This document shows positions 4,880 through 43,760 of a stretch of 64,000 bases of DNA, piece after piece. Both the position numbers and the translations under genes were made by a program. Source of the stretch: Patescibacteria group bacterium. Lineage in GTDB: Bacteria; Patescibacteriota; Patescibacteriia; Patescibacteriales; UBA12465. Position 1 is the stretch's first letter. The number at the start of each line of letters is the position of its first letter. Below the pieces are notes generated by a model that was not told where the DNA came from, did no database searches, and saw nothing but the letters and a program-made list of their open reading frames with translations. The stretch lies in assembly GCA_041651195.1 (NCBI GenBank), contig JBAZJR010000001.1, forward strand, positions 7,601-71,600. Reading direction: 5' to 3'.

Positions 4880-5647
4880 ATGAGAATAAGAATTATCAAG
4901 AGCCGGACTAGCGTTTTAGGAGCATCCATCTTTTTTTTAATTTTGATCGGGCTTTATCTGAATCGCGCTTATGCTCGTATCTATGATACGATCGGCGGCG
5001 CCAACTTGACGGCGGTCAGCTCCCCTGCTCGTTTTACTGTTGACATCGAAGGAGCGACCAGCAGCTTGAACTATGTCGCCCTGGGGGACAGCCTGAGCGC
5101 CGGCGTCGGCACGGAGGAAGCAGCCGCGTCATTGCCGCGCCTCTTAGCCGGCAAGATGTTGGCGACTAGGCGGGATATTAATTTAGAAAATTACGCCGTG
5201 CCGGGATATCGGACAGCGGACCTATTAATCAGCGCTCTGCCAAACGCTATTGCCGCCCGTCCGGACATTATTACGGTCTTGATCGGCGTCAACGATATCC
5301 ATAATCAAGTCGCCGCTGCGGAATTCCGGAAAAATTATGATTTAATCCTAAAAGGGCTGACCACGGAAACGGCTGCCAAGATATATGCCATCAATTTGCC
5401 CTTTATCGGGGCGGGGCGGATGATGTGGCCGCCTTATCAATTCTATTTTGATGCCCGGACTAGAGAATTCAACGGAATTATCAGAGAATTAGCCGTTAAA
5501 TATCAAGTAAGTTACATTGATCTATATACGCCGACCGTTTCTTTATTTAAAAAATCGGGGGAACATTATTCCGCCGACCTATTTCATCCCTCCGCCGCGG
5601 GCTATCGGATCTGGGCGGACATAATTTATGATCGTTTCTATCACTAA
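4880..5647 (+). CDS. SGNH/GDSL hydrolase with an N-terminal membrane anchor
   Basis: GDS block (ALGDSLSAGVG), GVND block and a C-terminal DLFHPS (DxxH) block. Confidence 0.8.
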   Translation: MRIRIIKSRTSVLGASIFFLILIGLYLNRAYARIYDTIGGANLTAVSSPARFTVDIEGATSSLNYVALGDSLSAGVGTEEAAASLPRLLAGKMLATRRDINLENYAVPGYRTADLLISALPNAIAARPDIITVLIGVNDIHNQVAAAEFRKNYDLILKGLTTETAAKIYAINLPFIGAGRMMWPPYQFYFDARTREFNGIIRELAVKYQVSYIDLYTPTVSLFKKSGEHYSADLFHPSAAGYRIWADIIYDRFYH

Positions 5648-6966: not shown

Positions 6967-7058
6967 TGCTCCTCCGAGGGTTGTTTAGAAATGATCGGAT
7001 ATTGATATTGATAGATTACGGCTTTTCTGCGGTTTAGTCAAATTGTCGCCAGTAATAT

Positions 7059-7086
7059 AAAAACTCGCCTGGACGGCGAGTTTTTT
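7059..7086. terminator. bidirectional intrinsic terminator (A-tract, CTCGCC/GGCGAG hairpin, T-tract)
   Basis: AAAAACTCGCC-TGGAC-GGCGAGTTTTTT lies immediately downstream of tRNA-Pro on the minus strand. Confidence 0.75.
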
Positions 7087-7087
7087 G

Positions 7088-7158
7088 TCGGGGCGCTGGG
7101 AATTGAACCCAGTCAACATGCTCCCAAAGCATGCGTACTACCGGTATACGACGCCCCG
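7088..7158 (-). tRNA. tRNA-Pro (UGG)
   Basis: Hand-folded cloverleaf: acceptor CGGGGCG/CGCCCCG, anticodon stem CAUGC/GCAUG with loop UUUGGGA, T-arm CUGGG-UUCAAUU-CCCAG. CCA is not encoded. Confidence 0.85.
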
Positions 7159-7222
7159 TGGCAGCCTTTAAAAAAATAAACCCATAAATAATAACCTGGG
7201 TTAATTTTTTATATATATCATG

Positions 7223-7294
7223 TGCCCCGGGTCAGAATCGAACTGACGACACAAGGATTTTCAGTCCTTTGCTCTACCACTGAGCTACCGAGGC
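7223..7294 (-). tRNA. tRNA-Phe (GAA)
   Basis: Acceptor GCCUCGG/CCGGGGC, D-arm GCUCAGUGGUAGAGC, anticodon loop CUGAAAA, T-arm GUCAG-UUCGAUU-CUGAC. Confidence 0.85.
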
Positions 7295-7322
7295 CCGGAA
7301 AATTATATTGTTAAAGTCTATC

Positions 7323-7398
7323 TGGTTGCGGGGGTCGGACTCGAACCGACGACCTCTAGGTTATGGGCCTAGCGAGCTGCCAACTGCTCTACCCCGCT
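7323..7398 (-). tRNA. tRNA-Met (CAU), possibly the initiator
   Basis: Anticodon loop CCCAUAA. It has a 1:72 A-A mismatch and an A11:U24 pair, both initiator-like, but only 2 of the 3 G:C pairs in the anticodon stem. It is the only tRNA here with an encoded CCA. Confidence 0.8.
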
Positions 7399-7412
7399 AT
7401 AATAAGAAACCG

Positions 7413-7486
7413 TGGGCAATGGAGGACTCGAACCTCCGACCTCAACATTATCAGTGTTGCGCTCTAACCAACTGAGCTAATTGCCC
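7413..7486 (-). tRNA. tRNA-Ile (GAU)
   Basis: Acceptor GGGCAAU/AUUGCCC, anticodon stem CAACA/UGUUG with loop CUGAUAA, T-arm GGAGG-UUCGAGU-CCUCC. Confidence 0.85.
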
Positions 7487-20601: not shown

Positions 20602-20675
20602 TGGACCCTAAGGGATTCGAACCCTTGACCCCCTGCTTGCAAAGCAGGTGCTCTGACCAGCTGAGCTAAGGGCCC
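20602..20675 (-). tRNA. tRNA-Ala (UGC)
   Basis: Acceptor GGGCCCU/AGGGUCC with the G3:U70 identity pair, anticodon loop UUUGCAA, T-arm AAGGG-UUCGAAU-CCCUU. Confidence 0.9.
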
Positions 20676-32436: not shown

Positions 32437-33201
32437 CTATTCTTTGCTGATGCTCCAGAGCGTTTCAAACATCAGCCTGTTCATCTCATAAATATCTTTA
32501 TTTTCGATCAGTATGGAGATTATTTTTCCCTTATTGATAACCTGGAAAGATATTTTGCCGTCATAAATCTGGATAGAAGTCTTGAAGGTGGCGGACAGAT
32601 TCTCTAAATAACGGATAGCCGTTATTTTTTCATATTCAGAATTTTGTTCACTCCCTTGATCGGGCCGTTCACCGACACGGATAATTTTTTTCTTTATTCC
32701 GAGCTTCTCTCGTTTTTGTTTATATTCCAGATTGGCTTCTTGAAATTCACCCTCTTCATTAAGGGCTTGTTTATTCAGGAGAAGATAGATTTCCGTTTTG
32801 CTCGATAAAGTGTCTTCTAAAATTTTTCGCAGCCCTTCTTCTCCCTCATAAAATCTCACTCCCGGCTTATTGCTGATCAGGCTATAAGCGGAAATCAGGT
32901 CGGGCAGGGCGTTGATGAATTCCTGTTTATGCTTGATCGCTTCTTTTTCTTTCTGCTCAGCAATTGTCTCTAAATTATAGGGGTGTTCGGCGGCAAAAAT
33001 AGTGATACCCTTAACTTCCTCGGTCTTGGAGACTAAATTGAGCCTAATTAACTCATCCAAGCCTTTATAAGCGACCCCGCGGGGCCGTTTTATTTTTTTA
33101 GCGATATTACTGGCCTTGTCAGGGCCGGAATTCAGCAGGGAATCCAGGATTTCCGCCTGGACCTTGGATAAGCCGAGATTATAAAGAGTTTTTTCGTACA
33201 T
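32437..33201 (-). CDS. TrmB-family transcriptional regulator
   Basis: N-terminal wHTH (LGLSKVQAEILDSLLNSGPDKASNIAKKIKRPRGVAYKGLDELIRLNLV) followed by a TrmB-like C-terminal domain. Confidence 0.75.
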   Translation of the reverse strand: MYEKTLYNLGLSKVQAEILDSLLNSGPDKASNIAKKIKRPRGVAYKGLDELIRLNLVSKTEEVKGITIFAAEHPYNLETIAEQKEKEAIKHKQEFINALPDLISAYSLISNKPGVRFYEGEEGLRKILEDTLSSKTEIYLLLNKQALNEEGEFQEANLEYKQKREKLGIKKKIIRVGERPDQGSEQNSEYEKITAIRYLENLSATFKTSIQIYDGKISFQVINKGKIISILIENKDIYEMNRLMFETLWSISKE

Positions 33202-33441
33202 ATATTTGTTTTTTATTGTTTTAATAGTGGCTAGGGGGGATTCTTCCTGTGGATAACTTTACAAAAATTAAGTTTTATTTTGTTAGTAGTTTAAGGGTCA
33301 CATTAATCCATAGTCATATTATAGCGCATATTAAATATAGTGTCAACTCTTAAAATGACAAAAAAAGAAAATAAATATGCGTATTTAAAGCATTTCTGTC
33401 TATATTTTAATAACATTTGCCAAAAATAGTCTTTTTAAGTC

Positions 33442-33470
33442 TTGACAATTATCTCAGAGCGTGCTAAACT
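33442..33470 (+). promoter_or_regulatory. near-consensus sigma70-type promoter at the head of the island
   Basis: TTGACA (33442-47), a 17-nt spacer ending in TGc (extended -10), then TAAACT (33465-70). The predicted TSS is about 33477. Confidence 0.7.
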
Positions 33471-33584
33471 TAAGTTATCGAAAATGAGAAAGGAAAGAAA
33501 CGGGCAAAACGCAGTACATTACATTCAAATAAAATAATGGAAGGAGAGAGCCATTATCAACTTAGTTTACTACGATCTTTATAT

Positions 33585-33651
33585 AAAGGGGTATTAGGCG
33601 GGTTAAGCTTTCTCATTCTATTAGAAAGTTTTTCCGCTTAGTACCCTTTTT
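33585..33651 (+). terminator. long three-tier hairpin ending in a U-run (attenuator/terminator candidate)
   Basis: Pairings AAAGGG/CCCUUU, GGCGG/CCGCU and AAGCUUUCU/AGAAAGUUU, with U47-U51 at the 3' side. It lies about 110-175 nt after the predicted TSS. Confidence 0.45.
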
Positions 33652-34265
33652 GGTTGGAAGAGAGCGGATAGTCATGGAGAGGAGAGAGATTTAGTCCCTG
33701 CGCTAGCGCCCACAGCCTAGAGCAGCTCTAAATAAGAAGCGCGGCCGATCGGAACTAAAAATATCATTTGGAAACGCCACCCCATGCCGTTTCCCAAAAT
33801 TCCTTCAAGGACGCCGAATAAACTCCCCTTCATAACTATCCGCTTTGAGCGGAACCGAAGCGATTGCGGCACAATTGCCCCAATTATTTAGGGAATAAAT
33901 AAATCAGTTAGATCAGCTTATCGATTTTAGGAGATCAAATGGACACATAAGCTTTAAGAATAAAGCGGAGAGGGTTCATCTCCTGAGATTAATAAAGATT
34001 TAACAGTTTGCTTCCGGGATCAACCCGGGATCAGGCGGGAAGTGAGTCAGAGCCGAGTAGCGTCGCAAACCGCCGCGGAGCCGAGACGATCCTAGTAGCG
34101 CGTGGCCCAGTTATCCTTAACGGGATGAGCAAGCTCCGGGAACGGCACGAACGCCACCGTCTTCTTACGAGGAGATCGGCTGAGCCCCAAGCCTTGAACA
34201 AGCTTAGGCCCAGAAATTTCCTCGGAAAAGTATAATTAGCCGAGAAAAAGTTCTTTGAAACTAAT
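33652..34265 (+). ncRNA. candidate large structured non-coding leader RNA (class unknown)
   Basis: About 600 nt with no credible ORF. It is more GC-rich than the flanks and dense in local hairpins (for example GGAAACG/CGUUUCC at 33770-94 and GGAGA-GGGUUCA-UCUCC at 33967-84). It is co-oriented with the operon. Confidence 0.3.
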
Positions 34266-34289: not shown

Positions 34290-34517
34290 GTGAGTAAAGT
34301 AAGCGCGGGAAAGGATATGAGTGATATTCAAATTCAATTGGTAAATGCTGGTCTAACCACCCAGCAAAAAATTGACGAAATCAATCGCCAGAAGGCGATT
34401 GATAAAAATTTTGTCCGGGTTGCGCGAAAAGCAAAACCCGGAGTTTCTCCCAAAATTTGGGAGAAATATGCCCGCTTGAAAAGGCAGGCGTCAAAAGATT
34501 TACAGTTTGTATACTAA
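34290..34517 (+). CDS. small basic protein (75 aa), unknown function
   Basis: The GTG at 34290 lies 6 nt after AAGGAG (34278-83). The ORF track opens at an upstream TTG (34266) that lacks an SD. Confidence 0.55.
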   Translation: MSKVSAGKDMSDIQIQLVNAGLTTQQKIDEINRQKAIDKNFVRVARKAKPGVSPKIWEKYARLKRQASKDLQFVY

Positions 34518-34631
34518 ACTGTAAATCAAGTTTCAAATTGGTTTAGCTTATCCCAAATCAAAAAATAAGCAGGCTATCCCACCGGATCGCCGGAGCTATT
34601 TCTACGCTCGAAGCGTCCATAAAAAGTTTAA

Positions 34632-34710
34632 AGAGCAGTGTCGTTCAAACATTGCTCTCCCTCCCGGGATGCGTGTTCCGGCTGATGAGTCCGAAAGGAC
34701 GAAAGGGAAG
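34632..34710 (+). ncRNA. hammerhead ribozyme copy 1 (type III) with 5' P0 hairpin
   Basis: P0 AGAGCAGUG/CAUUGCUCU. CCCUC with cleavage predicted after C34663. Stem I CCGGGA-UGCGUG-UUCCGG. Core CUGAUGA. Stem II GUCC-GAAA-GGAC. Then GAAA and GGGA. Confidence 0.9.
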
Positions 34711-34745
34711 TTCTTTGAAATTAAATTCATTAAATAAAATGCGGC

Positions 34746-34766
34746 TCCGACGTATTCGGGCAAGGA
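34746..34766 (+). promoter_or_regulatory. conserved leader hairpin plus SD (copy A)
   Basis: UCCGA-CGUAU-UCGGG hairpin, then cAAGGA, with the ATG 5 nt later. It is preceded by an A-rich tract and GCGGC. Confidence 0.7.
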
Positions 34767-34771
34767 ATAAG

Positions 34772-34990
34772 ATGGAAGAATTATTGAAGCAGCTCGGTTT
34801 TTCTAAAAGTCATAATCAATATGATTATGACAAGCATATAAAAAATAGAATATACATAACAGTTTATCCCAGCGGTGAAGGCTGGGAGGTGGCTGTTAGT
34901 TCTGAAAATTCGGACGGGAGCGCCAATACCATTTTTCTCGGCGCAACCACTGAGAAGAAAATAAGCCTCTTAGTTGAAGCGTTATTCTAA
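34772..34990 (+). CDS. small protein (72 aa), unknown function
   Basis: The ATG at 34772 is correctly spaced from the SD of leader copy A. The longer tracked ORF (from 34652) would read through the ribozyme. Confidence 0.6.
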   Translation: MEELLKQLGFSKSHNQYDYDKHIKNRIYITVYPSGEGWEVAVSSENSDGSANTIFLGATTEKKISLLVEALF

Positions 34991-35173
34991 GTAGACTTTA
35001 AATTTGGCAACGCAGCGGATTCTGCGGGATATACTTTTGACTCAAGTTGAGTTAAAAGCGGTTAGTTGATTATCCTTTAAAATCAGCGAGACTAGAAATT
35101 TAAATACTCATATAAATCTAAGTGAGTTCTTAGAGGAAACTGAGGAGATACTAATTTCTAGGGGAGAAGCGTC

Positions 35174-35485
35174 ATGTTTTTACTTAACGCTTTTTCCCTC
35201 AACATGATTTCTATCTTTCCGATAGCCATCAAGGTTGAGGAAATCTCTTTAGAGCAGGCTAAAGCCCTAGCCGCTGAAACTATTTCAGCAGTCGGTCACG
35301 CTGATACAGCTAATGTATTCAGCAGTGTTCTTGGGGTTAATGTGCCGACAAACAGAACGACCGTCGTCCTTAAAAAAGACGATCAAGCTCTCGTTGGTCA
35401 GTATATTGGGCCTCGTCTTCCGGAAGGGGCAACAACCTTACCGGAAGGCGCCACCATCAAGTGGCTCTTAGTTACCTTAGGGTAA
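35174..35485 (+). CDS. DUF1874 / AcrIII-1 (Crn2)-family ring-nuclease-like protein
   Basis: LLNAFSLNM N-terminus, AVGHADTA (conserved GH), NRTTVVLKKDDQALV and GPRLPEG. This matches the pattern I recall for STIV B116 / SIRV1 gp29. Confidence 0.7.
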   Translation: MFLLNAFSLNMISIFPIAIKVEEISLEQAKALAAETISAVGHADTANVFSSVLGVNVPTNRTTVVLKKDDQALVGQYIGPRLPEGATTLPEGATIKWLLVTLG

Positions 35486-35579
35486 TTAAGAAGAGATTGG
35501 GTGCGATTCGGGATTAAACCTTGAGGTTATGCTGTTAACCTTGCCGAATAAAAGCGGATCACCGCGACAGTAAGTTCAC

Positions 35580-35660
35580 GAGGGATGGCGTCAGTTCAAA
35601 CGTTGTCCTCCCTCCCGAGATGCGTGTCTCGGCTGATGAGTCCGAAAGGACGAAAGGGAA
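35580..35660 (+). ncRNA. hammerhead ribozyme copy 2 (type III) with 5' P0 hairpin
   Basis: P0 AGGGAUGGCG/CGUUGUCCU. CCCUC with cleavage after C35614. Stem I CCGAGA-UGCGUG-UCUCGG, a compensatory G:C to A:U change relative to copies 1, 3 and 4. Canonical core. Confidence 0.9.
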
Positions 35661-35789
35661 GTTCTTTAAAACCAGGCATTAATGGATTTAATTATTTTTT
35701 GAGATGTTTTTATAATTGTGTTCGTTCCGTCCAGATGATTTAAAGACGAATCGGATAATAATTAAATTCATTAAGTAAAAAAATGCGGC

Positions 35790-35810
35790 TCCGACGTATT
35801 CGGGCAAGGA
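35790..35810 (+). promoter_or_regulatory. conserved leader hairpin plus SD (copy B)
   Basis: Identical to copy A (UCCGA-CGUAU-UCGGG-cAAGGA). About 50 nt of upstream sequence (ttaaattcattaa.taaaa..atgcggc) is also shared with copy A. Confidence 0.7.
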
Positions 35811-35816
35811 TGAAAG

Positions 35817-37538
35817 TTGAAAAGGATTATAGTTTGCGGGCCACCCCATAGTGGAAAATCAGTGTTTTTAGCGAATCTGATGCGGCTGCTACCGCCAGAT
35901 TCGTTTTATTTAGCCTTCGCCGCTCCGGACGGCGAATGGCATTGGAGTAATTTCGGTGACCAGGATCTCGTATCCGTAGTTCGCCAGAAAGGAAAGTTCT
36001 CCGAGGATTTCGTTTCCTCAATGGAGAACGCCATTCGGAACAACCAGCAGCCGCTCGTGTTGGTTGACACCGGGGGAGTAATGTCCCCGGAAAACGGGCG
36101 GATATTTGATGTTTGCGAAGGGTGCATCATCCTCGCAAACAGCGAGAAAAGTAATGACGCAATTCCTGCCTGGCGTGAATTTGCCGCTAGCCATAGCGTG
36201 CAGGTTCTGGCCGAAATCGTTAGTGACCTTCATGGCACTAATGAACTCATCTCGTCGGGAGATGGGGATGGCGGGAAAATTATCGGTCGGATTGCCGGCC
36301 TTGAGCGCGGGCAGACAATTAATTCGCCCGTGCTGGAGGCGGTGGCAAACCGCCTGCGGGAAGTTATCCGGAGCAATTCGGAACTGACCGAAGGCGAGCT
36401 TCTTTGTAATGTGAACGGCGCCACTCTCGTGGACCGTATCGGCATTACCGAAAAGAATGACCCTTTCCTGGGGGTCAGGCCGATTCATCTCCAGGATGCC
36501 CTGCGTCTGACTAGTGCAGTGGCAAAATTAGAGACTGTGCGCATTTGGAATGTGCGCGCAGCTATCCTGGCCTGTGCTATGGCGAGCAGGTTCTCTGGCA
36601 ACATTGAACTATATGATGTTGCTAAGGGATATTTTCGTATCCCGGATGCGGTTCCGCAAGGCGCAGGGTGCAAGGATTGCGGTGTCGAATGGGAAGTGTT
36701 AGAGCTCCCCGAATTTACACTGGTTAGATTCCGTCCAACGCGGTTTATTACCGAGCGCGATTTGCCTAATATTTATCCTCCGGTAGTTGACACCACCAAA
36801 CCGGTCGTGATTGCTCACGACGGACCGCCGATGTGGCTTGATGCCACGGTAGTTCGTGCTTATTGGCGCTCGGGCGTGCCATACGTGGCTATGCTTTGGC
36901 CCGTGGAAAGTGCCCGCTCCCAAAAGCATCTTGGCGGGAAAAAATGGGATAAGGTATACCCGTTTGCTGGACCGGCCGTGGTAGTTGCTGGATCGGCAGA
37001 GAAAATCGGAGACATTATTCCAGTCTCCTTTGACCTCTTGAAATGGGACGCGCCGGTTGTTGGAAAATTAGCGTCTGGGCAAATAGTGATTGATCGCAAG
37101 GACAGCCATGTCCAAGGCCATTCCGAAGTCCTTCCTCTTCTTGTGGAAGCGCTTGCAAAGATCCATGCTATGGACCGTAAGAGTTTCTGTGAAGAGATAA
37201 GATTTTGTCGTACCATAGGCGAAACAATCTGCATTAATACAACTGACGCTGATGAAATTATTTATGCTCAACGCCCAAATCGCCGCGGGTTGACGCGGTT
37301 TGTCAAAAATCGTCAGCCCGAAGCAACCAGTTCAGTGGTTGCTTGCTTCATGAAAAATGATGGTATGGGAGGAGCCTATCTTCTCACAACCGCATTTATT
37401 GGGAGTCGCGCTCCTGCCGAGCCGTGGGACAAGCAGTGGGCGACCGAGGAATCGGCTACTTTCTGGAATACCCATGCTTTGATTTTTGAGAAATCAGAGA
37501 TCGTTGATGGGACTGAAACTGATAAGTGCCCATGGTAA
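35817..37538 (+). CDS. P-loop NTPase fused to a large C-terminal region with possible Csx3-like segments
   Basis: The TTG start lies 6 nt after the leader SD. Walker A is CGPPHSGKS and Walker B-like is LVLVDTGG. Segments RIWNVRAAILACAMA...ELYDVAKGYFRI and HDGPPMWLDATVV...VAMLWP...GPAVVVAGS are present. Confidence 0.7.
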   Translation: MKRIIVCGPPHSGKSVFLANLMRLLPPDSFYLAFAAPDGEWHWSNFGDQDLVSVVRQKGKFSEDFVSSMENAIRNNQQPLVLVDTGGVMSPENGRIFDVCEGCIILANSEKSNDAIPAWREFAASHSVQVLAEIVSDLHGTNELISSGDGDGGKIIGRIAGLERGQTINSPVLEAVANRLREVIRSNSELTEGELLCNVNGATLVDRIGITEKNDPFLGVRPIHLQDALRLTSAVAKLETVRIWNVRAAILACAMASRFSGNIELYDVAKGYFRIPDAVPQGAGCKDCGVEWEVLELPEFTLVRFRPTRFITERDLPNIYPPVVDTTKPVVIAHDGPPMWLDATVVRAYWRSGVPYVAMLWPVESARSQKHLGGKKWDKVYPFAGPAVVVAGSAEKIGDIIPVSFDLLKWDAPVVGKLASGQIVIDRKDSHVQGHSEVLPLLVEALAKIHAMDRKSFCEEIRFCRTIGETICINTTDADEIIYAQRPNRRGLTRFVKNRQPEATSSVVACFMKNDGMGGAYLLTTAFIGSRAPAEPWDKQWATEESATFWNTHALIFEKSEIVDGTETDKCPW

Positions 37539-37579
37539 TAATCAGTATAAACCAATAGATAAATCATAAAAACCGCGGC

Positions 37580-37604
37580 CCCGACGGTCAAATCGGGCAA
37601 GGAG
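37580..37604 (+). promoter_or_regulatory. conserved leader hairpin plus SD (copy C)
   Basis: CCCGA-CGGUCAAA-UCGGG, then cAAGGAG, with the ATG 5 nt later. It is preceded by aaaaaCCGCGGC. Confidence 0.65.
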
Positions 37605-37609
37605 AATTA

Positions 37610-38005
37610 ATGATGAAAACTACAAAATTTTTTGCAAGTTTAGGTGTTGTCCCTGGTTATGGCCACGATAACGCGACTGACGCCAGTGCGGTTGATATTG
37701 CTGGCAACGCCTGGCAAGCAGCTGCTGCAGGCGTGTTCGCTGAACAAAAAGTTTACGTCGGGGCGATAATTACGCCAGCCCGTACGGTTTACCATAAAGA
37801 CTGGGGTTGCCCAGTCGGTGGCGAATTAACGGTTTTGATTACTGGGGAACGCAACCCCCAGTATACGGCGGAAGAAAACTTCAAGACGGCCGTAGTTGAA
37901 ACTTTAAAAAGGACTGCTCAAGCGTTGAAGCAGTCTACCACGCAGGTAACTTTTCAGGAAGTCGATATGGAATATCTTGACTTTCGTGAAAAGAAGCCTG
38001 AATAA
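37610..38005 (+). CDS. hypothetical protein (131 aa)
   Basis: Good SD and spacing. No recognisable motif. Confidence 0.6.
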   Translation: MMKTTKFFASLGVVPGYGHDNATDASAVDIAGNAWQAAAAGVFAEQKVYVGAIITPARTVYHKDWGCPVGGELTVLITGERNPQYTAEENFKTAVVETLKRTAQALKQSTTQVTFQEVDMEYLDFREKKPE

Positions 38006-38064
38006 AGTTGCGGATCCTCTAGTCCACGGAGGAATTGGCTAAGCCAGTGGAAAGTTCATGAGAC

Positions 38065-38144
38065 AGAGCAATGATAGTTCAAGCATTGCTCTCCCTCCCG
38101 GGATGCGTGTCCCGGCTGATGAGTCCGAAAGGACGAAAGGGAAG
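38065..38144 (+). ncRNA. hammerhead ribozyme copy 3 (type III) with 5' P0 hairpin
   Basis: P0 AGAGCAAUG/CAUUGCUCU, a perfect 9 bp. CCCUC with cleavage after C38097. Stem I CCGGGA-UGCGUG-UCCCGG. Canonical core and GAAA-capped stem II. Confidence 0.9.
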
Positions 38145-38164
38145 AACATTAAAAACTTAATAGG

Positions 38165-38236
38165 GTTTGACTGCGAACCGAGTCTCGGTGCGCCAGTTTT
38201 TGATTTAGCTGGCCGAGATTGAGTTAGCAGTCAAAC
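38165..38236 (+). promoter_or_regulatory. structured 5' UTR of the MoxR-like gene
   Basis: Outer 10-bp helix GUUUGACUGC/GCAGUCAAAC encloses CCGAG / CUCGG / CCAG...CUGG / CCGAG segments. The central CUCGG can pair with either CCGAG. Confidence 0.5.
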
Positions 38237-38266
38237 TTAAACAAAAAACAAGAGGAGGAGTTAATC

Positions 38267-39493
38267 ATGGATGCTATAGTAAAAAAGTTGCAAAATAATG
38301 AGACGGAAATTTGCCGTCTCTTAATTGGACGGAAAGAAGAAGTCCGAGGTATTTTCTTGGCGGTTTTAGCCCGCCAGCATGCGATTCTATTCGGGCCGCA
38401 CGGTGAAGCAAAATCAATGCTTTTGGATTACTTTGTAGAAGGTATTGATGGCGCGTCGGTATTTACTAAAACCGTAGCGCAGGATACTTTACCGGATGAT
38501 CTCTTTGTAGCCGCTTACGATTTTCTCATGGAAAATCTGGAAGGCGGCAAACAACGCAACATTACGGAGCCGATTACGACCGGTATGATGCCGGAAGCGC
38601 ACTTTGCAATGTTGCGGGAATTATTCCGATGTTCCGGGCCTACTTTAAATGCTTTATTAACCGCTATCAACGAACGCTATTATGAGGTTCGCGGCCAGCG
38701 GAAGAAAATGCCTTTAATTTCTGTCTTTGGGGACACTAATAATCTCCCCGGCGAGGATTTGGAAGCTTTCTATGATCGCTTCATGCTCCGGTATGTAGTG
38801 GATCGTATTGCCGAAAAATCCGAAAGGATCCGGATGCGCCAGTTATCTCATCAGCGTCGCCAAGGCAACCCGAGCGCTAAACCTAAATTGAGCAAGGTCA
38901 CTTTAGAAGAACTTGCTTCAGTTCAGGAAACAGTGCTCGCCGTTGACATTAATGAGCGGATTGATGATCTTATTGAAACCATAATTGAAAAACTTTACAG
39001 CGAAGGAGTGATCATTTATGGCCGACGTGATGTTCGTCTTAATCCATTGCTTCAAGCCAACGCCTATTTAGAGGGTCGGGACGAAGTAACGGAAGCGGAT
39101 CTCGTCGATGTTCTCCCGCATGTGCTCTGGGATAATCCGGATCATCAAAAGTTGGTTCGCAAAGTTATCTTATCGGTCGCTAATCCGCTTGGTTTATTAG
39201 TCCAAGAACTATTGGACGAAGCCAAGGAATTACGTGATGCCGCCATCAGTCGCAAGAAAGATGACGGAAGCGATAAGAACGACGCGGAATATAATCGCGG
39301 TGGGTCAGAAGCTAACGCTAAACTTAAAAAGTTAATTTCTGGCGACGATAACGCCGGCATTAAAGGAATAACTCAACTTTTTGAGGAAGCAAAAAAATCT
39401 GGCTTCCCAACCAAAAGCATCCAGGACGCTTTAGATACAGTTAAGCGCTATCAGCGCGATGTGGCTAAAGAGGTTATGGGTTTTGACGTTTAG
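38267..39493 (+). CDS. RavA-like MoxR-family AAA+ ATPase (atypical Walker B)
   Basis: Walker A is [35 protein letters not shown] aligns with my recollection of RavA ([23 protein letters not shown]), so the Walker B Asp is Arg here. An [10 protein letters not shown] block is also present. Confidence 0.8.
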   Translation: [408 protein letters not shown]

Positions 39494-39506
39494 GAGAGGA
39501 GGGGCC

Positions 39507-41096
39507 ATGAAAAAGACTGAAAACGTCGTATATTCTGACCGCTACGATAAAAGGACTTTTGAGTCTATAAAGTCGCGGGCGGCCAGAATACAAGAATTGG
39601 AAAATAAAGGTCTGGAGAAGTTGCCAAGTTATTCGCCTTTACTTATGGATTTGTATTCAATTCTGTACAAGACAGATCCGATTTTGAAGTCTAAAGAAAA
39701 AGTAAAGGCGAGCGAACTCATCAACAGGAATATAATTGAAAAAGTTATGGATACCAAGCAGTATCCAGAACTACGAAGTTATACCTATTTGGATGAATTC
39801 GCTAGCTCCATGGCTGTCCTGTCGTTGGGCGAAGCGGTCTTAGAATTGATTCCTGAAGATGCAAAGCAGAAAATGCAAAACATTAAAAGTCAGGAAGATA
39901 ATCAGTTACAAGGTCTGCAAGATCAAGCAGAGCGGGCGCAGGAAGCAGCAGATTGGGCAAGCGATGAGGCCCAGGAAGCAGCCGATGCCGCTCGCGAAGC
40001 AAAGAAAAGTAATAGTTCGCAAGCTAGCAAATTTCAGCAACGGGCGCAACAAGCTAAAGATAGAGCGCAGCAAATGTCCGATCAAGCCGAACAAGCTCAA
40101 ATGACATTTGAAGAGGCGCAACAGAAGCTGGCCGAGCAGGCGGAAGCAATTGAGCAGGAACTGGAGGATGGAGCGGGCGAGAAAATGCGCCAAGCGATTC
40201 GTAAGGCGGCTAAGCAGTCACGCGACCAAGCGGAAGAGCAGACTGAAACTTTAGAAGCTTGGGGCACGGAGCCCGGTGAGATCCAGAAGTTATCTTATGA
40301 GGATAAGATGGCTTTAGCCGAAAGGCTGAAGAACAATAAAAAACTTCGTGAGATAGCTAAAATCGTCGGGCGTTTCCGTCGGATGGCTATTGCCAAACAA
40401 AAGGAGAAAATAAATTCTCGGACTGGCGTCGTCACTAACGTGAAACGAGGTAATGATTTGCGGAGATTAGTTCCGGCTGAACGCTCTAAATTCGCTCATC
40501 CGTCGATGCGATTAGATTTCATCCGTCGCTTTGCTTCTAAGCAATTATTTGTCTTCGAAACCGAAGAAAAACAAAGTTTGGGACAAGGTCCGGTGATAGT
40601 CGGCATTGATAATTCTGGATCAATCACTTCCGAACAGGAAATTTGGGAAAAAGGTTTAGCGCTTGGATTATATCAATGCGCTGATTATCAGAACCGCCAT
40701 TTCATATTCATTCAATATGGCGGACCCAGCGATCCTCTCAAAGTGATTGAGATTAAAAAGGGTGAAGCGAGCTATTTGAAGCTCCTAGAAGTAGCTGAAT
40801 ATTTTTTGGGCGGTGGCACTGACTTTGAAAAGCCGTTGAAGAAAGCACAAGAATATATTGAGAAAGGACTAAAAGCCGATATCGTTTTTATTACGGATGG
40901 CGAATGCGCGGTTTCCAGCGAATTCTTAATAGAATTCAATGAAGCGCGCAAGAAAATCCCTTTTAACGTATTCTCCGTTCTGCTTAATATCGGCGGTCGG
41001 ACCAGTTCGGCCAGCCTGGAAAAGTTTAGTGACGAATTATTCAATGTCAGCGAGCTCACGGTTGAGCAAGCTGGCGCGGTGTTTGCCCGGGTTTAA
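39507..41096 (+). CDS. VWA-domain protein (ViaA/CobT-like) with a central Gln/Ala/Glu-rich coiled-coil
   Basis: The ATG at 39507 follows GGAGAGGAGG. The MIDAS motif is VGIDNSGS, followed by GGGTDF and VFITDGE. The tracked ORF start (39459) overlaps the upstream gene. Confidence 0.8.
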   Translation: MKKTENVVYSDRYDKRTFESIKSRAARIQELENKGLEKLPSYSPLLMDLYSILYKTDPILKSKEKVKASELINRNIIEKVMDTKQYPELRSYTYLDEFASSMAVLSLGEAVLELIPEDAKQKMQNIKSQEDNQLQGLQDQAERAQEAADWASDEAQEAADAAREAKKSNSSQASKFQQRAQQAKDRAQQMSDQAEQAQMTFEEAQQKLAEQAEAIEQELEDGAGEKMRQAIRKAAKQSRDQAEEQTETLEAWGTEPGEIQKLSYEDKMALAERLKNNKKLREIAKIVGRFRRMAIAKQKEKINSRTGVVTNVKRGNDLRRLVPAERSKFAHPSMRLDFIRRFASKQLFVFETEEKQSLGQGPVIVGIDNSGSITSEQEIWEKGLALGLYQCADYQNRHFIFIQYGGPSDPLKVIEIKKGEASYLKLLEVAEYFLGGGTDFEKPLKKAQEYIEKGLKADIVFITDGECAVSSEFLIEFNEARKKIPFNVFSVLLNIGGRTSSASLEKFSDELFNVSELTVEQAGAVFARV

Positions 41097-41141
41097 TGCG
41101 GGCAACGCCGTTAATCTAATAAATATAACTAAATAATAAAT

Positions 41142-41175
41142 CCGGTCCGCGGTGAGACGCGGCAGCATTTACCGG
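41142..41175 (+). promoter_or_regulatory. nested hairpin in the 5' UTR of the 407-aa gene
   Basis: CCGG...CCGCG-GUGAGA-CGCGG...CCGG, followed by an A-tract and AAGGAGG. The inner hairpin resembles the one over the 34290 start codon. Confidence 0.45.
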
Positions 41176-41194
41176 AAAAAACAAGGAGGAAATA

Positions 41195-42418
41195 ATGCGA
41201 TATATTAGTTTTTCTGATATTAAGTCCGCCGTAGATTTATATCATGGTTTACCGGCCGCCACCTTTTTCAAAGGGTTGACCGGTTATGGGTTAGTTTCCG
41301 AAGACGGAGTGGAGAGTATTGGCAAGATCGGACCTTGGTCCGGTATTTGGAAGCCGATGTATTTCTTTATTTCTGGCGGACAGCAACAAGCTTCTAAAAT
41401 TTTAACTGCTGATGATATTAAAAAATCAGTAGAAAAATTTTTAGGAAATGAGCTGTTTGCTCTGTTGCGAGTAAAAACCGGAAAAGGAATTAGATTGAAT
41501 TCTGGGTTTCCAGAAGTAGTTGATTCCGCCAAATCTGAAACAGAAATCAGCTATGAGTTAAATCATTTCGGCGGACGGTCAATTACACCACGGCTGGAAG
41601 TCGGACTTAACTCCTTGCAGGATCCCAATATAAAATGGCAGTCGGGATTCCTGTATCAAGATAAAAATCATGTTGCCCCAAAAATAAATAAGCGATTGTT
41701 GCTTAGTCGCGTTTTGGTGCAAAGTGATTTTGCTGATCAGGCTAGTTATGAGATAGCCTGGCAGGAAGTGGAGAAAGAAATAAAAAGATTGCTTTTTATG
41801 CACTGTGAGGGCAATCTGGTGAAGGTCGCGACTAATGGTGGCGATCGCGTTAGAACGTTTTTTTCACAGGAACTGACTGGTCTGTTGCCGCACAGTCAGA
41901 TAGACAAAAAAAAGGGTTTTGATTATTCTCAACGTTCGGACGGAACGGTAGTAATTCAAAAATCCGTTCAGCCTCGGGAATATCAAGATGCCGGAACATT
42001 CGAAAAGTATATGGAAGATTTTACGAAAGAATGTTCTCGCGTTTACACCCTTTATTGCCAGCCGCTATCCGATGCTCAAAGGAAAAAACTAGGCAAGCCA
42101 GGCAATGAAGAAGGCGAACTAGTTTTTACCGCCAACGGCGATTTTGAACGCGATGAAAGACGTTCAAATGAAGATAATGAACAGCTGATTATGTGGCGTC
42201 ATCGTCGCGGTGCGCCCCATTTCCCTTATGAAGGCTGGCAGCCGGAGAAGGGAAAAGATTACTATGTAATCTGCCATAAGTGGGGGAATGGTTATCGAGT
42301 ATCTCCTGGCTCGGCTCGCTATGAGCAAAGAACAGGGGAAAAATTCATTGAAAAAATTAAAAAGGAGTTTGACGGCAGCGAGAATGTGATTGCCCAGACT
42401 CCAATCGTTAGTTCTTAA
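41195..42418 (+). CDS. hypothetical protein (407 aa), third gene of the MoxR-VWA block
   Basis: Strong SD (AAGGAGG). No motif recognised. Confidence 0.65.
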   Translation: MRYISFSDIKSAVDLYHGLPAATFFKGLTGYGLVSEDGVESIGKIGPWSGIWKPMYFFISGGQQQASKILTADDIKKSVEKFLGNELFALLRVKTGKGIRLNSGFPEVVDSAKSETEISYELNHFGGRSITPRLEVGLNSLQDPNIKWQSGFLYQDKNHVAPKINKRLLLSRVLVQSDFADQASYEIAWQEVEKEIKRLLFMHCEGNLVKVATNGGDRVRTFFSQELTGLLPHSQIDKKKGFDYSQRSDGTVVIQKSVQPREYQDAGTFEKYMEDFTKECSRVYTLYCQPLSDAQRKKLGKPGNEEGELVFTANGDFERDERRSNEDNEQLIMWRHRRGAPHFPYEGWQPEKGKDYYVICHKWGNGYRVSPGSARYEQRTGEKFIEKIKKEFDGSENVIAQTPIVSS

Positions 42419-42430
42419 AAAAGTTCAAAA

Positions 42431-42506
42431 AAGTGAATAGCATAGTTCCTTTAGGTCTATTCACTTCTTTTCTGAAATCAGCAAGTGATTGGTGATTTCA
42501 GAGAAG
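42431..42506 (+). terminator. two tandem hairpins downstream of the 407-aa gene (weak terminator or processing site)
   Basis: AAGUGAAUAG/CUAUUCACUU (10 bp, loop contains UAGUUCC) is followed by CUUUUCU. Then CUUUUCUGAAAUCA/UGAUUUCAGAGAAG (14 bp with one G:U). Confidence 0.4.
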
Positions 42507-42610
42507 AAAATAAAGGCGGAGGAGAATATTTTATAATTTCTCTCCTATAATTCTGTTCTTTTCCGCTTTTTCTTCTAGTTCATTAAAAGTTGAATAAGGC
42601 CAAGATTTTT

Positions 42611-42657
42611 TAGCTACTATTTCTGGGGTTCGGATAAAACTCTAGAAATAGTAGCTA
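42611..42657 (+). other. perfect 14-bp hairpin with a GUUC-containing loop (ribozyme-less P0-like element)
   Basis: UAGCUACUAUUUCU, a 19-nt loop GGGGUUCGGAUAAAACUCU, then AGAAAUAGUAGCUA. It lies 30 nt upstream of leader copy D. Confidence 0.6.
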
Positions 42658-42687
42658 AACAAATTAAACCAATAAAAAAATCGCGGC

Positions 42688-42710
42688 CCCGACGTATTCG
42701 GGCAAGGGGA
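42688..42710 (+). promoter_or_regulatory. conserved leader hairpin plus SD (copy D)
   Basis: CCCGA-CGUAU-UCGGG, then cAAGGGGA, with the ATG 4 nt later. It is preceded by aaaaaaaUCGCGGC. Confidence 0.7.
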
Positions 42711-42714
42711 AATA

Positions 42715-43095
42715 ATGAAAAAAATAGTAATTTTTTCTTTACTGTTATTGCTGTTGCCGGCCTGCCGGGATAGCCAAGTTGACTTAGAAAAATCTGGCAT
42801 CAAAATTGGCGGAATAGTAAAGTCGGAATACGGAAATATAGCTATAACCGACATTAGTAGTCGCGCGGAAACGGCAGATTTTTCCGTATTTCGATTGACA
42901 GGGATTCTGTATGTTGACTCCATCGTGGCTTATACATCGTGGAGCTCAAGATACTTCAATGGCCCCGCCTGGCATGTCCTAAACAATGGACGCAGCTACT
43001 TTATCAGGGGTGACAACGGGAATTATTCATATTACGATATGGATCTCGATTATGCGAGATTTTATACAATAATTTCTGAGGTTCGCCAGAACTAA
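42715..43095 (+). CDS. putative lipoprotein (126 aa)
   Basis: Signal peptide with a lipobox: MKKIVIFSLLLLLLPAC. Confidence 0.65.
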   Translation: MKKIVIFSLLLLLLPACRDSQVDLEKSGIKIGGIVKSEYGNIAITDISSRAETADFSVFRLTGILYVDSIVAYTSWSSRYFNGPAWHVLNNGRSYFIRGDNGNYSYYDMDLDYARFYTIISEVRQN

Positions 43096-43120
43096 AAAGG
43101 GAAGCGTTAAGTTTTTAGCA

Positions 43121-43200
43121 AGGGTGGCACTCGTTCTATTGCCGCCCTACCCTCCCGGGATGCGTGTCCCGGCTGATGAGTCCGAAAGGACGAAAGGGTA
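43121..43200 (+). ncRNA. hammerhead ribozyme copy 4 (type III) with 5' P0 hairpin
   Basis: P0 AGGGUGGCA/UGCCGCCCU. ACCCUC with cleavage after C43154. Stem I CCGGGA-UGCGUG-UCCCGG. Canonical core. The outermost stem III pair is flipped to A:U (ACCCU/AGGGU), where the other copies have U:A. Confidence 0.9.
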
Positions 43201-43245
43201 ATCTACTAAAAATTATATCAACGCAATAAAAAAAATAAAACCGTG

Positions 43246-43268
43246 CTCGACGGTTATCGAGTAAGGAG
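43246..43268 (+). promoter_or_regulatory. conserved leader hairpin plus SD (copy E)
   Basis: CUCGA-CGGUUA-UCGAG, a compensatory C:G to U:A change, then uAAGGAG, with the ATG 5 nt later. It is preceded by aaaaaauaaaaCCGUGC. Confidence 0.65.
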
Positions 43269-43273
43269 AGATT

Positions 43274-43480
43274 ATGGATATCCAAGAATTTAAATATTTG
43301 TTATCCACTGAGCTTAATAGTGCTGGAATAAAGAACGTCCTCATTAAAGAGGACGGGATAACAATAATTAGGGGCGTTGTTAATGTCCCTAACGAAGAGA
43401 TACAAAACTTTATCGATCGTTATGGGGATAATCCCCTGCCGATTGAGAAGTTATTTGTTTGTGTAAGAGTGCTTCAATAG
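43274..43480 (+). CDS. small protein (68 aa), unknown function
   Basis: Good SD and spacing. It lies entirely between ribozyme copies 4 and 5. Confidence 0.55.
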   Translation: MDIQEFKYLLSTELNSAGIKNVLIKEDGITIIRGVVNVPNEEIQNFIDRYGDNPLPIEKLFVCVRVLQ

Positions 43481-43488
43481 TGTTCAAG

Positions 43489-43587
43489 AGGGATGACGTC
43501 AGTTCAAACGTTGTCCTCCCTCTCAGGATTATATCCTGACTGATGAGTCCTCGTTTTGCCACTAGGGCGGACAAAGGACGAAAGGGA
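43489..43587 (+). ncRNA. hammerhead ribozyme copy 5 (divergent type III)
   Basis: P0 AGGGAUGACG/CGUUGUCCU. CCCUC with cleavage after C43522. Stem I is fully replaced but still paired (UCAGGA-UUAUA-UCCUGA). Core CUGAUGA. Stem II GUCC...GGAC carries a 25-nt insertion. Then GAAA-GGGA. Confidence 0.85.
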
Positions 43588-43595
43588 AAATCGAG

Positions 43596-43645: not shown

Positions 43646-43753
43646 AACCGCCTTTGAAGCGTAGAGCGTAAAAGACAGAACATTATTAAAACTCTCTCTC
43701 CTTAATACTGTACTTTCTTTTTACAACGCTCTACACTTGAAGGGCGGTTTTTG
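43646..43753 (+). terminator. long inverted repeat plus U-run: probable terminator of the island operon
   Basis: 24-nt arms (43646-69 and 43726-49) with 21 Watson-Crick pairs, 1 G:U and 2 mismatches. The loop is 56 nt and is followed by UUUUU. Confidence 0.6.
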
Positions 43754-43760
43754 CTATAAT
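43752..43760 (+). promoter_or_regulatory. extended -10 element (TGCTATAAT), candidate ftsK promoter
   Basis: A perfect TGnTATAAT 55 nt upstream of the ftsK ATG. An identical copy lies at 43631-39. Confidence 0.5.

Follow-up and report, generated by a model that had tools for sequence, protein, structure and literature searches.

Introduction

Hammerhead ribozymes of types III and I define the unit-length, highly structured RNAs of the Avsunviroidae, of plant and animal retrozymes and of viroid-like satellites. The ends of such units, a 5′-hydroxyl (5′-OH) and a 2′,3′-cyclic phosphate, can be closed by tRNA ligase or by RtcB, for which they are suitable substrates. Here we examine a set of hammerhead ribozymes carried by a bacterial chromosome, in a 64,000-nucleotide (nt) stretch of DNA, hereafter the window, from a metagenome-assembled genome of an uncultured Patescibacteria group bacterium (assembly GCA_041651195.1, contig JBAZJR010000001.1, positions 7,601 to 71,600 of the forward strand). 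The biological role of bacterial self-cleaving ribozymes other than glmS is largely unknown (PMC6765202). Among clustered bacterial hammerheads, three arrays cleave in vitro at every site and one cleaves in vivo in Escherichia coli (PMC3088659), and a function in mRNA processing has already been proposed for such clusters (PMC3088659; reviewed in PMC6765202). In engineered cassettes, a 5′ ribozyme combined with a folded 3′ end raised expression, an effect attributed in part to mRNA stabilization (PMC6993053).

The window carries five type III hammerheads, each abutted by a small covarying hairpin (P0), within an accessory-gene island that recurs with different genes in related genomes. We consider ribozyme processing of a polycistronic RNA into linear mRNAs the best explanation of this arrangement, and give the reading as a whole, with active ribozymes in a conserved intergenic module and probable cleavage in vivo, a probability of about 0.6.

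Results

Five type III hammerheads lie on one strand of the window

Five copies of the motif CTGATGAGTCC-N(3–33)-GGACGAAA, all on the plus strand, are present in the window, whereas 100 shuffles gave an expectation of zero. Alignment and folding identified all five copies as complete type III hammerheads, in which the 5′ strand of stem III (UCCCU) and C17 are followed by the stem I hairpin, CUGAUGA, the stem II hairpin, GAAA and AGGGA. Every copy has the type III core (C3-U4-G5-A6-N7-G8-A9, G12-A13-A14, A15.1-U16.1, H17), here in the form of CUGAUGA, GAAA, C17 and the A15.1-U16.1 pair that closes stem III. Between the copies, stems I and II show compensatory changes. A CCCU/AGGG stem III is common to all five, as the initial annotation of this DNA had noted, and at the fifth stem III pair hammerhead 4 (the copy at 43155) has A-U and the other four have U-A.

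Together with their P0 hairpins, hammerheads 1 to 5 occupy positions 34630–34710, 35580–35661, 38063–38144, 43119–43201 and 43488–43589 of the plus strand, and cleavage is predicted 3′ of C17, after 34663, 35614, 38097, 43154 and 43522, respectively. The fragments between the predicted cuts (34664–35614, 35615–38097, 38098–43154 and 43155–43522) measure 951, 2483, 5057 and 368 nt; these boundaries and lengths, first proposed in the initial annotation, were reproduced here. The 5′-OH and 2′,3′-cyclic phosphate that it assigned to the released RNAs are likewise the ends to be expected if the paired ribozymes cut as predicted.

All five copies matched the Rfam family Hammerhead_3 (RF00008) in E-value mode, at 39.5, 34.9, 23.8, 20.2 and 19.5 bits, and none reached the gathering threshold of 48.5 bits. 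The shortfall is due to a short stem III, for which the Rfam model expects seven pairs, and to loop lengths, and not to the core. A scan of the window in gathering mode returned tRNAs only, so routine annotation would overlook the ribozymes. The tRNA genes themselves, a cluster of four at 7088–7486 (minus strand) and one apart at 20602–20675 (minus strand), appear ordinary. A custom covariance model, built from the window copies and their relatives, scored the window hammerheads at 75–100 bits (95, 98, 100, 88 and 75 bits for hammerheads 1 to 5) and found no sixth copy in the window. Hammerhead 5 has an enlarged stem II and an altered loop I, and a copy at the related locus L074 shares both traits, with the same type of altered loop.

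Across 21 distinct sequences, 97.5% of the cells of the three type III helices are paired, against 37–47% in slid controls. Compensatory changes affect six of seven pairs in stem I, one of four in stem II and three of five in stem III, in an alignment that was fitted to the covariance model and thereby favors the structure somewhat. At two related loci, some array hammerheads have CCGAUGA in place of CUGAUGA, a change of core U4, with all helices kept (L072, 8427–8508 and 5915–5997; L078, 8139–8219); these could be inactive copies or natural core variants.

A covarying hairpin abuts every ribozyme

P0 is a 9-bp hairpin with GUUCAA in its loop that precedes each of the five hammerheads and abuts stem III with zero spacer. 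The initial annotation had placed a P0 element before stem III, and comparison with relatives bears it out as a real helix: across 21 distinct relatives, not one of the nine pairs lacks compensatory changes, and pairing holds in 96.8% of cells, compared with about 40% in slid controls. A stable hairpin 0–2 nt 5′ of stem III is also found, in unrelated sequences, at no fewer than 40 of 69 distinct metagenomic hammerheads of the same stem III type.

P0 and the ribozyme belong to a longer intergenic module, which consists, in order, of a small hairpin, AAGUUCA, P0, the hammerhead and an AU-rich tail (approximately AAGNNCNUUAAAAAUUNAAUAG), often followed by a shared 5′ untranslated region (5′ UTR) with the translation-initiation region. 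One module of the window, at 42419–42600 (plus strand), has no hammerhead and comprises AAGTTCAAA, a P0-like hairpin, two other hairpins, the usual 3′ tail and the shared 5′ UTR. Both module sites of the related locus L073 are also of this P0-only type (7054–7126 and 5271–5352, minus strand). AAGUUCA and the P0-like hairpin are kept in the window and L073 modules, and the 3′ tail in the window copy. Such modules could be decayed ribozymes or a different element. Since P0 modules persist at the 3′ ends of genes in the absence of a hammerhead, P0 is likely to have a role of its own.

The shared 5′ UTR (GCGGCYCCGACGUAUUCGGGCAAGGA) is near-identical before unrelated open reading frames (ORFs) in several cassettes and genomes, with a small hairpin just before the Shine-Dalgarno sequence. 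Copies lie at 34741–34771, 35785–35816 and 42683–42716 of the window, at about 785–847 in L004 and at about 790–863 in L006. Pairing of the P0 loop with the 3′ tail as a pseudoknot was rejected, as it proved inconsistent between copies on inspection. Across the window, GTTCAA is not enriched (28 occurrences against 26.7 expected).

The array recurs in a hypervariable island

The hammerhead island extends over about 10 kb between a divergent gene for a TrmB-like regulator (32437–33201, minus strand) and ftsK (43815), in a chromosome segment that also has polA, Mur ligases, ddl and rpoBC. The source samples are covered by ENA assembly ERZ27247363, and run SRR8542065 carries the locus as well. 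Searching metagenomes for the hammerhead pattern yielded 63 loci, and searching genomes for the exact core yielded 5. Six more syntenic loci (L072–L075, L078 and L080) were reached via homologues of the TrmB-like protein and are therefore unbiased for ribozyme sequence. These protein-anchored loci share their flanks, RuvC-GNAT-TrmB on one side and ftsK on the other where the locus extends that far, and contain a leader of about 1.2 kb followed by an array with different genes in every genome.

The related arrays carry zero to four hammerheads, with two to four in L006, L019, L031, L052, L072, L074, L078 and L080. In the window and 13 related loci, every hammerhead is intergenic and lies on the coding strand. 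The cargo of the six syntenic arrays includes AbiEii, DEAD helicases and MoxR-vWA; among the pattern-seeded arrays, radical SAM and DHH genes were found in addition. The position of an Mvol_0529-like gene varies: it comes after AAA-Csx3 in the window, is the only gene between two hammerheads in L019, and in L055 and L068 precedes the ribozyme, after which comes AAA-Csx3. The island between the TrmB-like regulator and FtsK is hypervariable, and its cargo differs in every related genome.

A phage origin found no support: there was no megablast match in a phage collection, and the hammerhead pattern was absent from viral contigs. PHROGs matches were confined to ATPase families, families whose function is unknown, and two weak matches of the vWA protein to tail proteins. 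The island is flanked by housekeeping genes (RuvC, glycosyltransferase, FtsK, Mur ligase and rpoBC) rather than by a prophage or integrase context.

The array has one promoter-like site, a structured leader and a terminator-like end hairpin

A strong promoter-like site at 33442–33470 (plus strand; TTGACA, 17 nt, TG-TAAACT) probably marks the start of the array transcript, and its hexamers are conserved in the alignment with L052. It diverges from a perfect-consensus promoter of the TrmB-like gene at 33346–33318 (minus strand). At the other end, a terminator-like long hairpin with a T-run occupies 43648–43755 (plus strand; folding z = −6.6), before FtsK; its stem measures about 24 bp, and a terminator-like hairpin is predicted at 43727–43746, 3′ of the last ribozyme. 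The long hairpin is 92% identical in L004, and L073 and L074 have a similar AACCGCCCYTCAAGTGTAGAGCG ahead of ftsK. The hairpin may act as a terminator or as a regulatory RNA; its weak FasX-like match in Rfam probably carries no meaning. Between the promoter-like site and the end hairpin, no terminator-like site of the plus strand is intergenic, and the two listed (35450 and 41692) fall inside coding sequence. A single polycistronic transcript would thus be the simplest reading of the locus.

A conserved, structured non-coding leader of some 700–740 nt (33535–34232, plus strand) separates the TrmB-like gene from the array. It shares 79–85% nucleotide identity with L052 and L006, two further genomes of Patescibacteria, over 730–1400 nt, with substitutions that lack codon periodicity and stops in all frames. 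RNAalifold analysis of the three sequences found 16 compensatory pairs, and no Rfam family matched, even with lax filters. We regard the leader as a candidate new large structured RNA.

A 70-nt hairpin with the apical loop CCUUGAACAAG, the leader motif (LM; 34163–34232, plus strand), makes up the 3′ domain of the leader. Each of the 13 arrays for which enough sequence was available has a single LM copy at its head (the window, L052, L006, L019, L031, L035, L068, L072–L075, L078 and L080). Six of its 16 predicted pairs show compensatory changes, and its apical loop is invariant except in L035. Sequences complementary to this loop occur in the P0 loops (GUUCAA) and 5′ of P0 (the AAGUUCAAG motif), and the tail found 3′ of every hammerhead is also found 3′ of LM. 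In L035, the single variant, the loop reads UUGAAU and the 5′ motif AAUUCAA; the matching change from G-C to A-U fits a real loop-loop pairing.

A small basic ORF of 66 amino acids (aa) lies between the leader and hammerhead 1 (34317–34517, plus strand), with a homologous ORF in the same place in L052. A match to drum RNA (RF02958) at 34370–34480 was rejected, as it scored 31.3 bits against a gathering threshold of 43 and overlaps this conserved ORF.

Cargo coding regions are unusually structured

All cargo genes are on the plus strand. The 951-nt fragment carries an ORF of 72 aa (34772–34990) and a DUF1874/STIV_B116-like, Csx16-like gene (35174–35485; Pfam PF08960, 2e-14; PADLOC Csx16, 4e-11), of which a 79% identical copy adjoins a hammerhead in L006. 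The 2483-nt fragment carries an AAA-Csx3-like gene (35817–37538; PADLOC, 4e-40) and a gene of the Mvol_0529 family (37610–38005; PADLOC Mvol_0529-fam, 2e-27). These three genes, of which the DUF1874/Csx16-like and AAA-Csx3-like ones are ring-nuclease-like, are grouped at 35174–38005. Families DUF1874/Csx16, AAA-Csx3 and Mvol_0529 usually occur with type III CRISPR loci, and no CRISPR-Cas genes were seen among the annotated genes of the window. The 5057-nt fragment encodes a MoxR ATPase (38267–39493; Pfam bpMoxR, 1e-30), a vWA protein (39459–41096; VWA_2, 4e-9) and ORFs of 407 aa (41195–42418) and 126 aa (42715–43095); PHROGs matches were obtained as well. Several cargo ORFs had no matches. The 368-nt fragment carries a 68-codon ORF (43274–43480) with an AAGGAG Shine-Dalgarno sequence. 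Neither of two very large protein searches gave this ORF a homologue: the word-indexed one returned none, and the full HMMER one yielded only weak, partial hits on far longer proteins, which we do not count as homologues.

Compared with dinucleotide shuffles, the cargo coding regions fold strongly, with a mean z of −3.0 (14 windows of sequence), whereas the mean for housekeeping genes of the same 64-kb stretch is −0.1 (33 windows; Mann-Whitney p = 4e-7). Six other genomes (L072–L075, L078 and L080; seven in total) show the same contrast between cargo and flanks, and the island has roughly three times the density of perfect hairpins of 7 bp or more. Conservation of the individual hairpins is poor, and the internal hairpins of the Mvol_0529-like gene are mostly not conserved position by position. 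The 368-nt unit was considered as a specially structured non-coding RNA on account of its interior (z = −5). This candidate was rejected: other cargo coding regions are equally structured, and structure is therefore a property of the island and not of the unit.

Discussion

Proposed ribozyme processing into linear mRNAs

We propose that the modules punctuate one transcript of about 10 kb from the hypervariable island, and that co-transcriptional self-cleavage would release linear mRNAs of one or a few cistrons. On the upstream side of each cut, the product would terminate in the stable P0 hairpin and only about 6 nt more (UCCCUC) with a 2′,3′-cyclic phosphate, an end type that resists 3′ exonucleases. 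The downstream product would carry its 5′-OH on the first nucleotide of the stem I hairpin and hence present no single-stranded 5′ end to RNases that depend on one. The stability and translation of each cassette could in this way be uncoupled from those of its neighbors, amid frequent cassette exchange. The contiguous, pre-cleavage stem III is maintained by selection, each hammerhead keeping its own (at least four contiguous pairs) in 26 of 26 cases. The structured cargo coding regions of the seven genomes, as judged from predicted folding, are consistent with selection for RNase-resistant RNAs.

Several points weigh against this proposal. The effect of a 5′-OH depends on the organism and is one of the main uncertainties: in Bacillus, RNase J1 targets the 5′-OH product of the glmS ribozyme, and by analogy a 5′-OH could destabilize rather than protect an RNA where RNase J is present. 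Another is hammerhead 5, which sits a mere 200 nt or so ahead of the terminator with no ORF between them, so that separation of cistrons is unneeded there. The L073 array has no intact hammerhead, and the ribozyme is therefore dispensable. Finally, the antisense strand of the cargo shows an almost equal folding excess (z = −2.6 versus −3.0), and because the excess is nearly strand-symmetric it cannot be assigned to mRNA with certainty.

Alternative explanations

The near strand symmetry of the hairpin excess would also suit a role at the DNA level, in which the near-identical modules of about 150–250 bp serve mainly as recombination substrates that shuffle cassettes, through homologous recombination or in the manner of folded single-stranded attC sites, with RNA cleavage secondary. 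This alternative, which would be compatible with mRNA processing, seems to us unlikely. It would account for cargo that differs in every genome between conserved flanks, for Mvol_0529-like, AAA-Csx3 and DUF1874 genes in varying order and with varying partners, and for the shared 5′ UTR before unrelated ORFs. The P0 of hammerhead 5 is identical to the DUF1874-linked P0 in L006, the cassettes are co-oriented behind one promoter as in integrons, and Weinberg et al. 2017 drew the analogy to attC for an unrelated “DUF1874 motif” of consecutive intergenic regions (PMC5737381). However, the Pfam-annotated flanking regions of the six protein-anchored loci, which reach as far as 10 kb to either side of TrmB, contained no integrase or other recombinase, and none adjoins the window array. 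Homology breakpoints lie off the hammerhead sites, the DUF1874 unit shared with L006 starting at about 35005 and not at a ribozyme. All catalytic nucleotides and the stem covariation are preserved, which a mere recombination repeat would not need.

A different fate for the cleaved RNA, circularization, was central to the initial annotation, according to which the ends of each fragment rebuild a hammerhead, with the 368-nt unit as the most suggestive case. After cleavage, the 3′ end (P0-UCCCUC with a cyclic phosphate) would pair with the hammerhead body at the 5′ end of the same RNA, and ribozyme reversal or an RtcB-type ligase would join the two into circular mRNAs or a circular 368-nt RNA. 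We judge this quite improbable. Within the window the end pairing does hold: all four fragments can rebuild a stem III of 4–5 bp, the excised 368-, 951- and 2483-nt RNAs re-form an end-to-end stem III with a probability of about 0.5 in the thermodynamic model, and in its minimum-free-energy fold the 368-nt RNA is closed at its ends. By stacking on stem III, P0 could retain the 5′ product, the predicted ends suit RtcB, the cargo RNA is highly structured like viroid-like RNAs, and hammerhead 5 has no obvious cistron-separating role. However, the geometry follows automatically in any type III array with a shared stem III, and the nearest-neighbor model ignores the entropic cost of closing kilobase loops.

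Conservation in relatives does not bear out the circular reading. End compatibility is kept in 11 of 17 adjacent pairs overall and in 4 of 9 in the protein-anchored arrays, where random between-genome pairs give 0.52 and 0.26, respectively; each ribozyme’s own stem III, by comparison, is kept throughout. Compensatory changes keep the cis helix and break the cross helix in L019 (CCCU/AGGG beside CGGU/ACCG), L072 (CACU/AGUG between CCYU types), L078 (CUGU/ACAG) and L080 (CCGU/ACGG beside CCAU/AUGG). The same is seen in the window, where the fifth pair of hammerhead 4 covaries in cis and is mismatched in both cross combinations, so that both of its fragments lose the pair. In L074, by contrast, all three hammerheads share a derived stem III (UUCCU/AGGAA) despite diverged P0 and stem I, a pattern that common descent or gene conversion may explain as well as selection for compatibility. 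In the arrays compared here, end-to-end compatibility is not consistently maintained by evolution.

Further observations point the same way. No alternative fold was found that would switch the rebuilt hammerhead off; it would be as competent as its parent, and an unprotected circle would therefore re-cleave. The 368-nt unit does have its ORF and Shine-Dalgarno sequence, but neither the unit nor the ORF is conserved, the unit being present in no relative examined. Two weak negatives may be added: no permuted contig was found, the sole extra public (Logan) contig with the 68-aa ORF being colinear with the genome, and the 33-mer of the back-splice junction (ACGTTGTCCTCCCTC to CCGGGATGCGTGTCCCGG) was absent from viral contigs. 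The Logan contig starts inside hammerhead 4, as expected of an assembly break at a repeat. Perreault et al. 2011 had raised circular or spliced products for clustered bacterial hammerheads and detected neither (PMC3088659). Circularization thus seems possible in silico, and the sequence comparison gives it no positive support.

A more speculative view, which we also think quite improbable, joins the promoter, the LM leader, the P0-hammerhead modules and the hyper-structured coding regions into one dedicated RNA-“hardening” system of a fast-evolving defense or counter-defense island. The GUUCAA loops of P0 and the AAGUUCAAG motif would pair with the leader loop CUUGAACA, or a common factor would bind them, and RNA ends would be drawn together, non-covalently or ahead of ligation into circles by RtcB or the ribozyme. 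Messages capped by hairpins, those of ring-nuclease-like genes included, would then survive RNase attack in episymbiotic Patescibacteria. The matching loop change in L035 would agree with the pairing step.

Negative regulation or insulation, in which the cut marks downstream RNA for decay or stops read-through into ftsK and keeps cargo expression low or conditional, can draw on the glmS precedent, on the last hammerhead just 5′ of the ftsK control region and on the dispensability of the hammerhead in L073, but is quite improbable given that the 3′ product would start directly with stem I, an obstacle to a 5′ exonuclease, that a terminator already lies between the array and ftsK, and that the conserved P0 and shared translation-initiation region point to productive cassette expression.

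Comparison with known systems

Processing into linear mRNAs thus remains our preferred reading, and the locus would offer a natural test case for it, with ribozymes at fixed operon positions of a conserved chromosomal site in many related genomes with different cargo. The accessory P0 hairpin suggests what the cut may be for, namely the making of protected RNA ends. The analysis also draws attention to a hypervariable island of the Candidate Phyla Radiation with ring-nuclease-like and MoxR-vWA genes, to an undescribed leader RNA of about 740 nt, and to an excess of RNA or DNA secondary structure confined to the island. Clustered bacterial hammerheads, the processing idea and the circle idea are already published. 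As far as our searches of the literature reached, we found no prior description of a hammerhead array in a Patescibacteria chromosomal island, of a covarying P0 accessory hairpin, of a leader motif with P0-loop complementarity or of unusually structured cargo coding regions.

The clusters of Perreault et al. 2011 resemble the window array in having several same-strand hammerheads that flank single genes or short blocks of varying identity, and in the proposed processing of long transcripts into gene-length mRNAs (PMC3088659); at least two hammerheads on the coding strand, as in those clusters, are present here. Those clusters lie in bacterial prophage regions, whereas the present array occupies a chromosomal island of Patescibacteria in which no phage genes or similarity were found. 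The window array also differs in being all type III and in having a covarying P0 that abuts stem III and a dedicated leader motif, neither of which is mentioned there.

Viroid-like RNAs and retrozymes consist of small, largely non-coding units that repeat a single sequence and that replicate or retrotranspose. The units of the window are instead unrelated protein-coding segments of 368–5057 nt on a bacterial chromosome, with no reverse transcriptase seen at the locus and no repetition of a common unit. Compatible unit ends, which in viroid-like RNAs are under selection, occur in all four fragments of the window and do not hold across relatives.

Integron arrays share with the island co-oriented, promoter-less, rapidly exchanged cassettes behind one promoter, with structured repeats between them. 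The “DUF1874 motif” (PMC5737381) is alike by description only, through its consecutive intergenic regions and a DUF1874 gene in the cargo. The island loci differ from integrons, defined by intI, attI and attC, in that no integrase accompanies them, the repeats are ribozymes and the breakpoints lie off the repeats.

The likeness that bears most directly on ribozyme processing is to RiboJ-type insulators combined with folded 3′ ends (PMC6993053), in which an upstream hammerhead removes sequence context and leaves a structured 5′ end. If confirmed, the processing reading would explain in general terms why hammerheads cluster and would give synthetic ribozyme insulators a forerunner in nature. The insulator parts are artificial and act in model bacteria, whereas the natural module would yield both ends in a single cut, because P0 lies immediately 5′ of the cleavage site.

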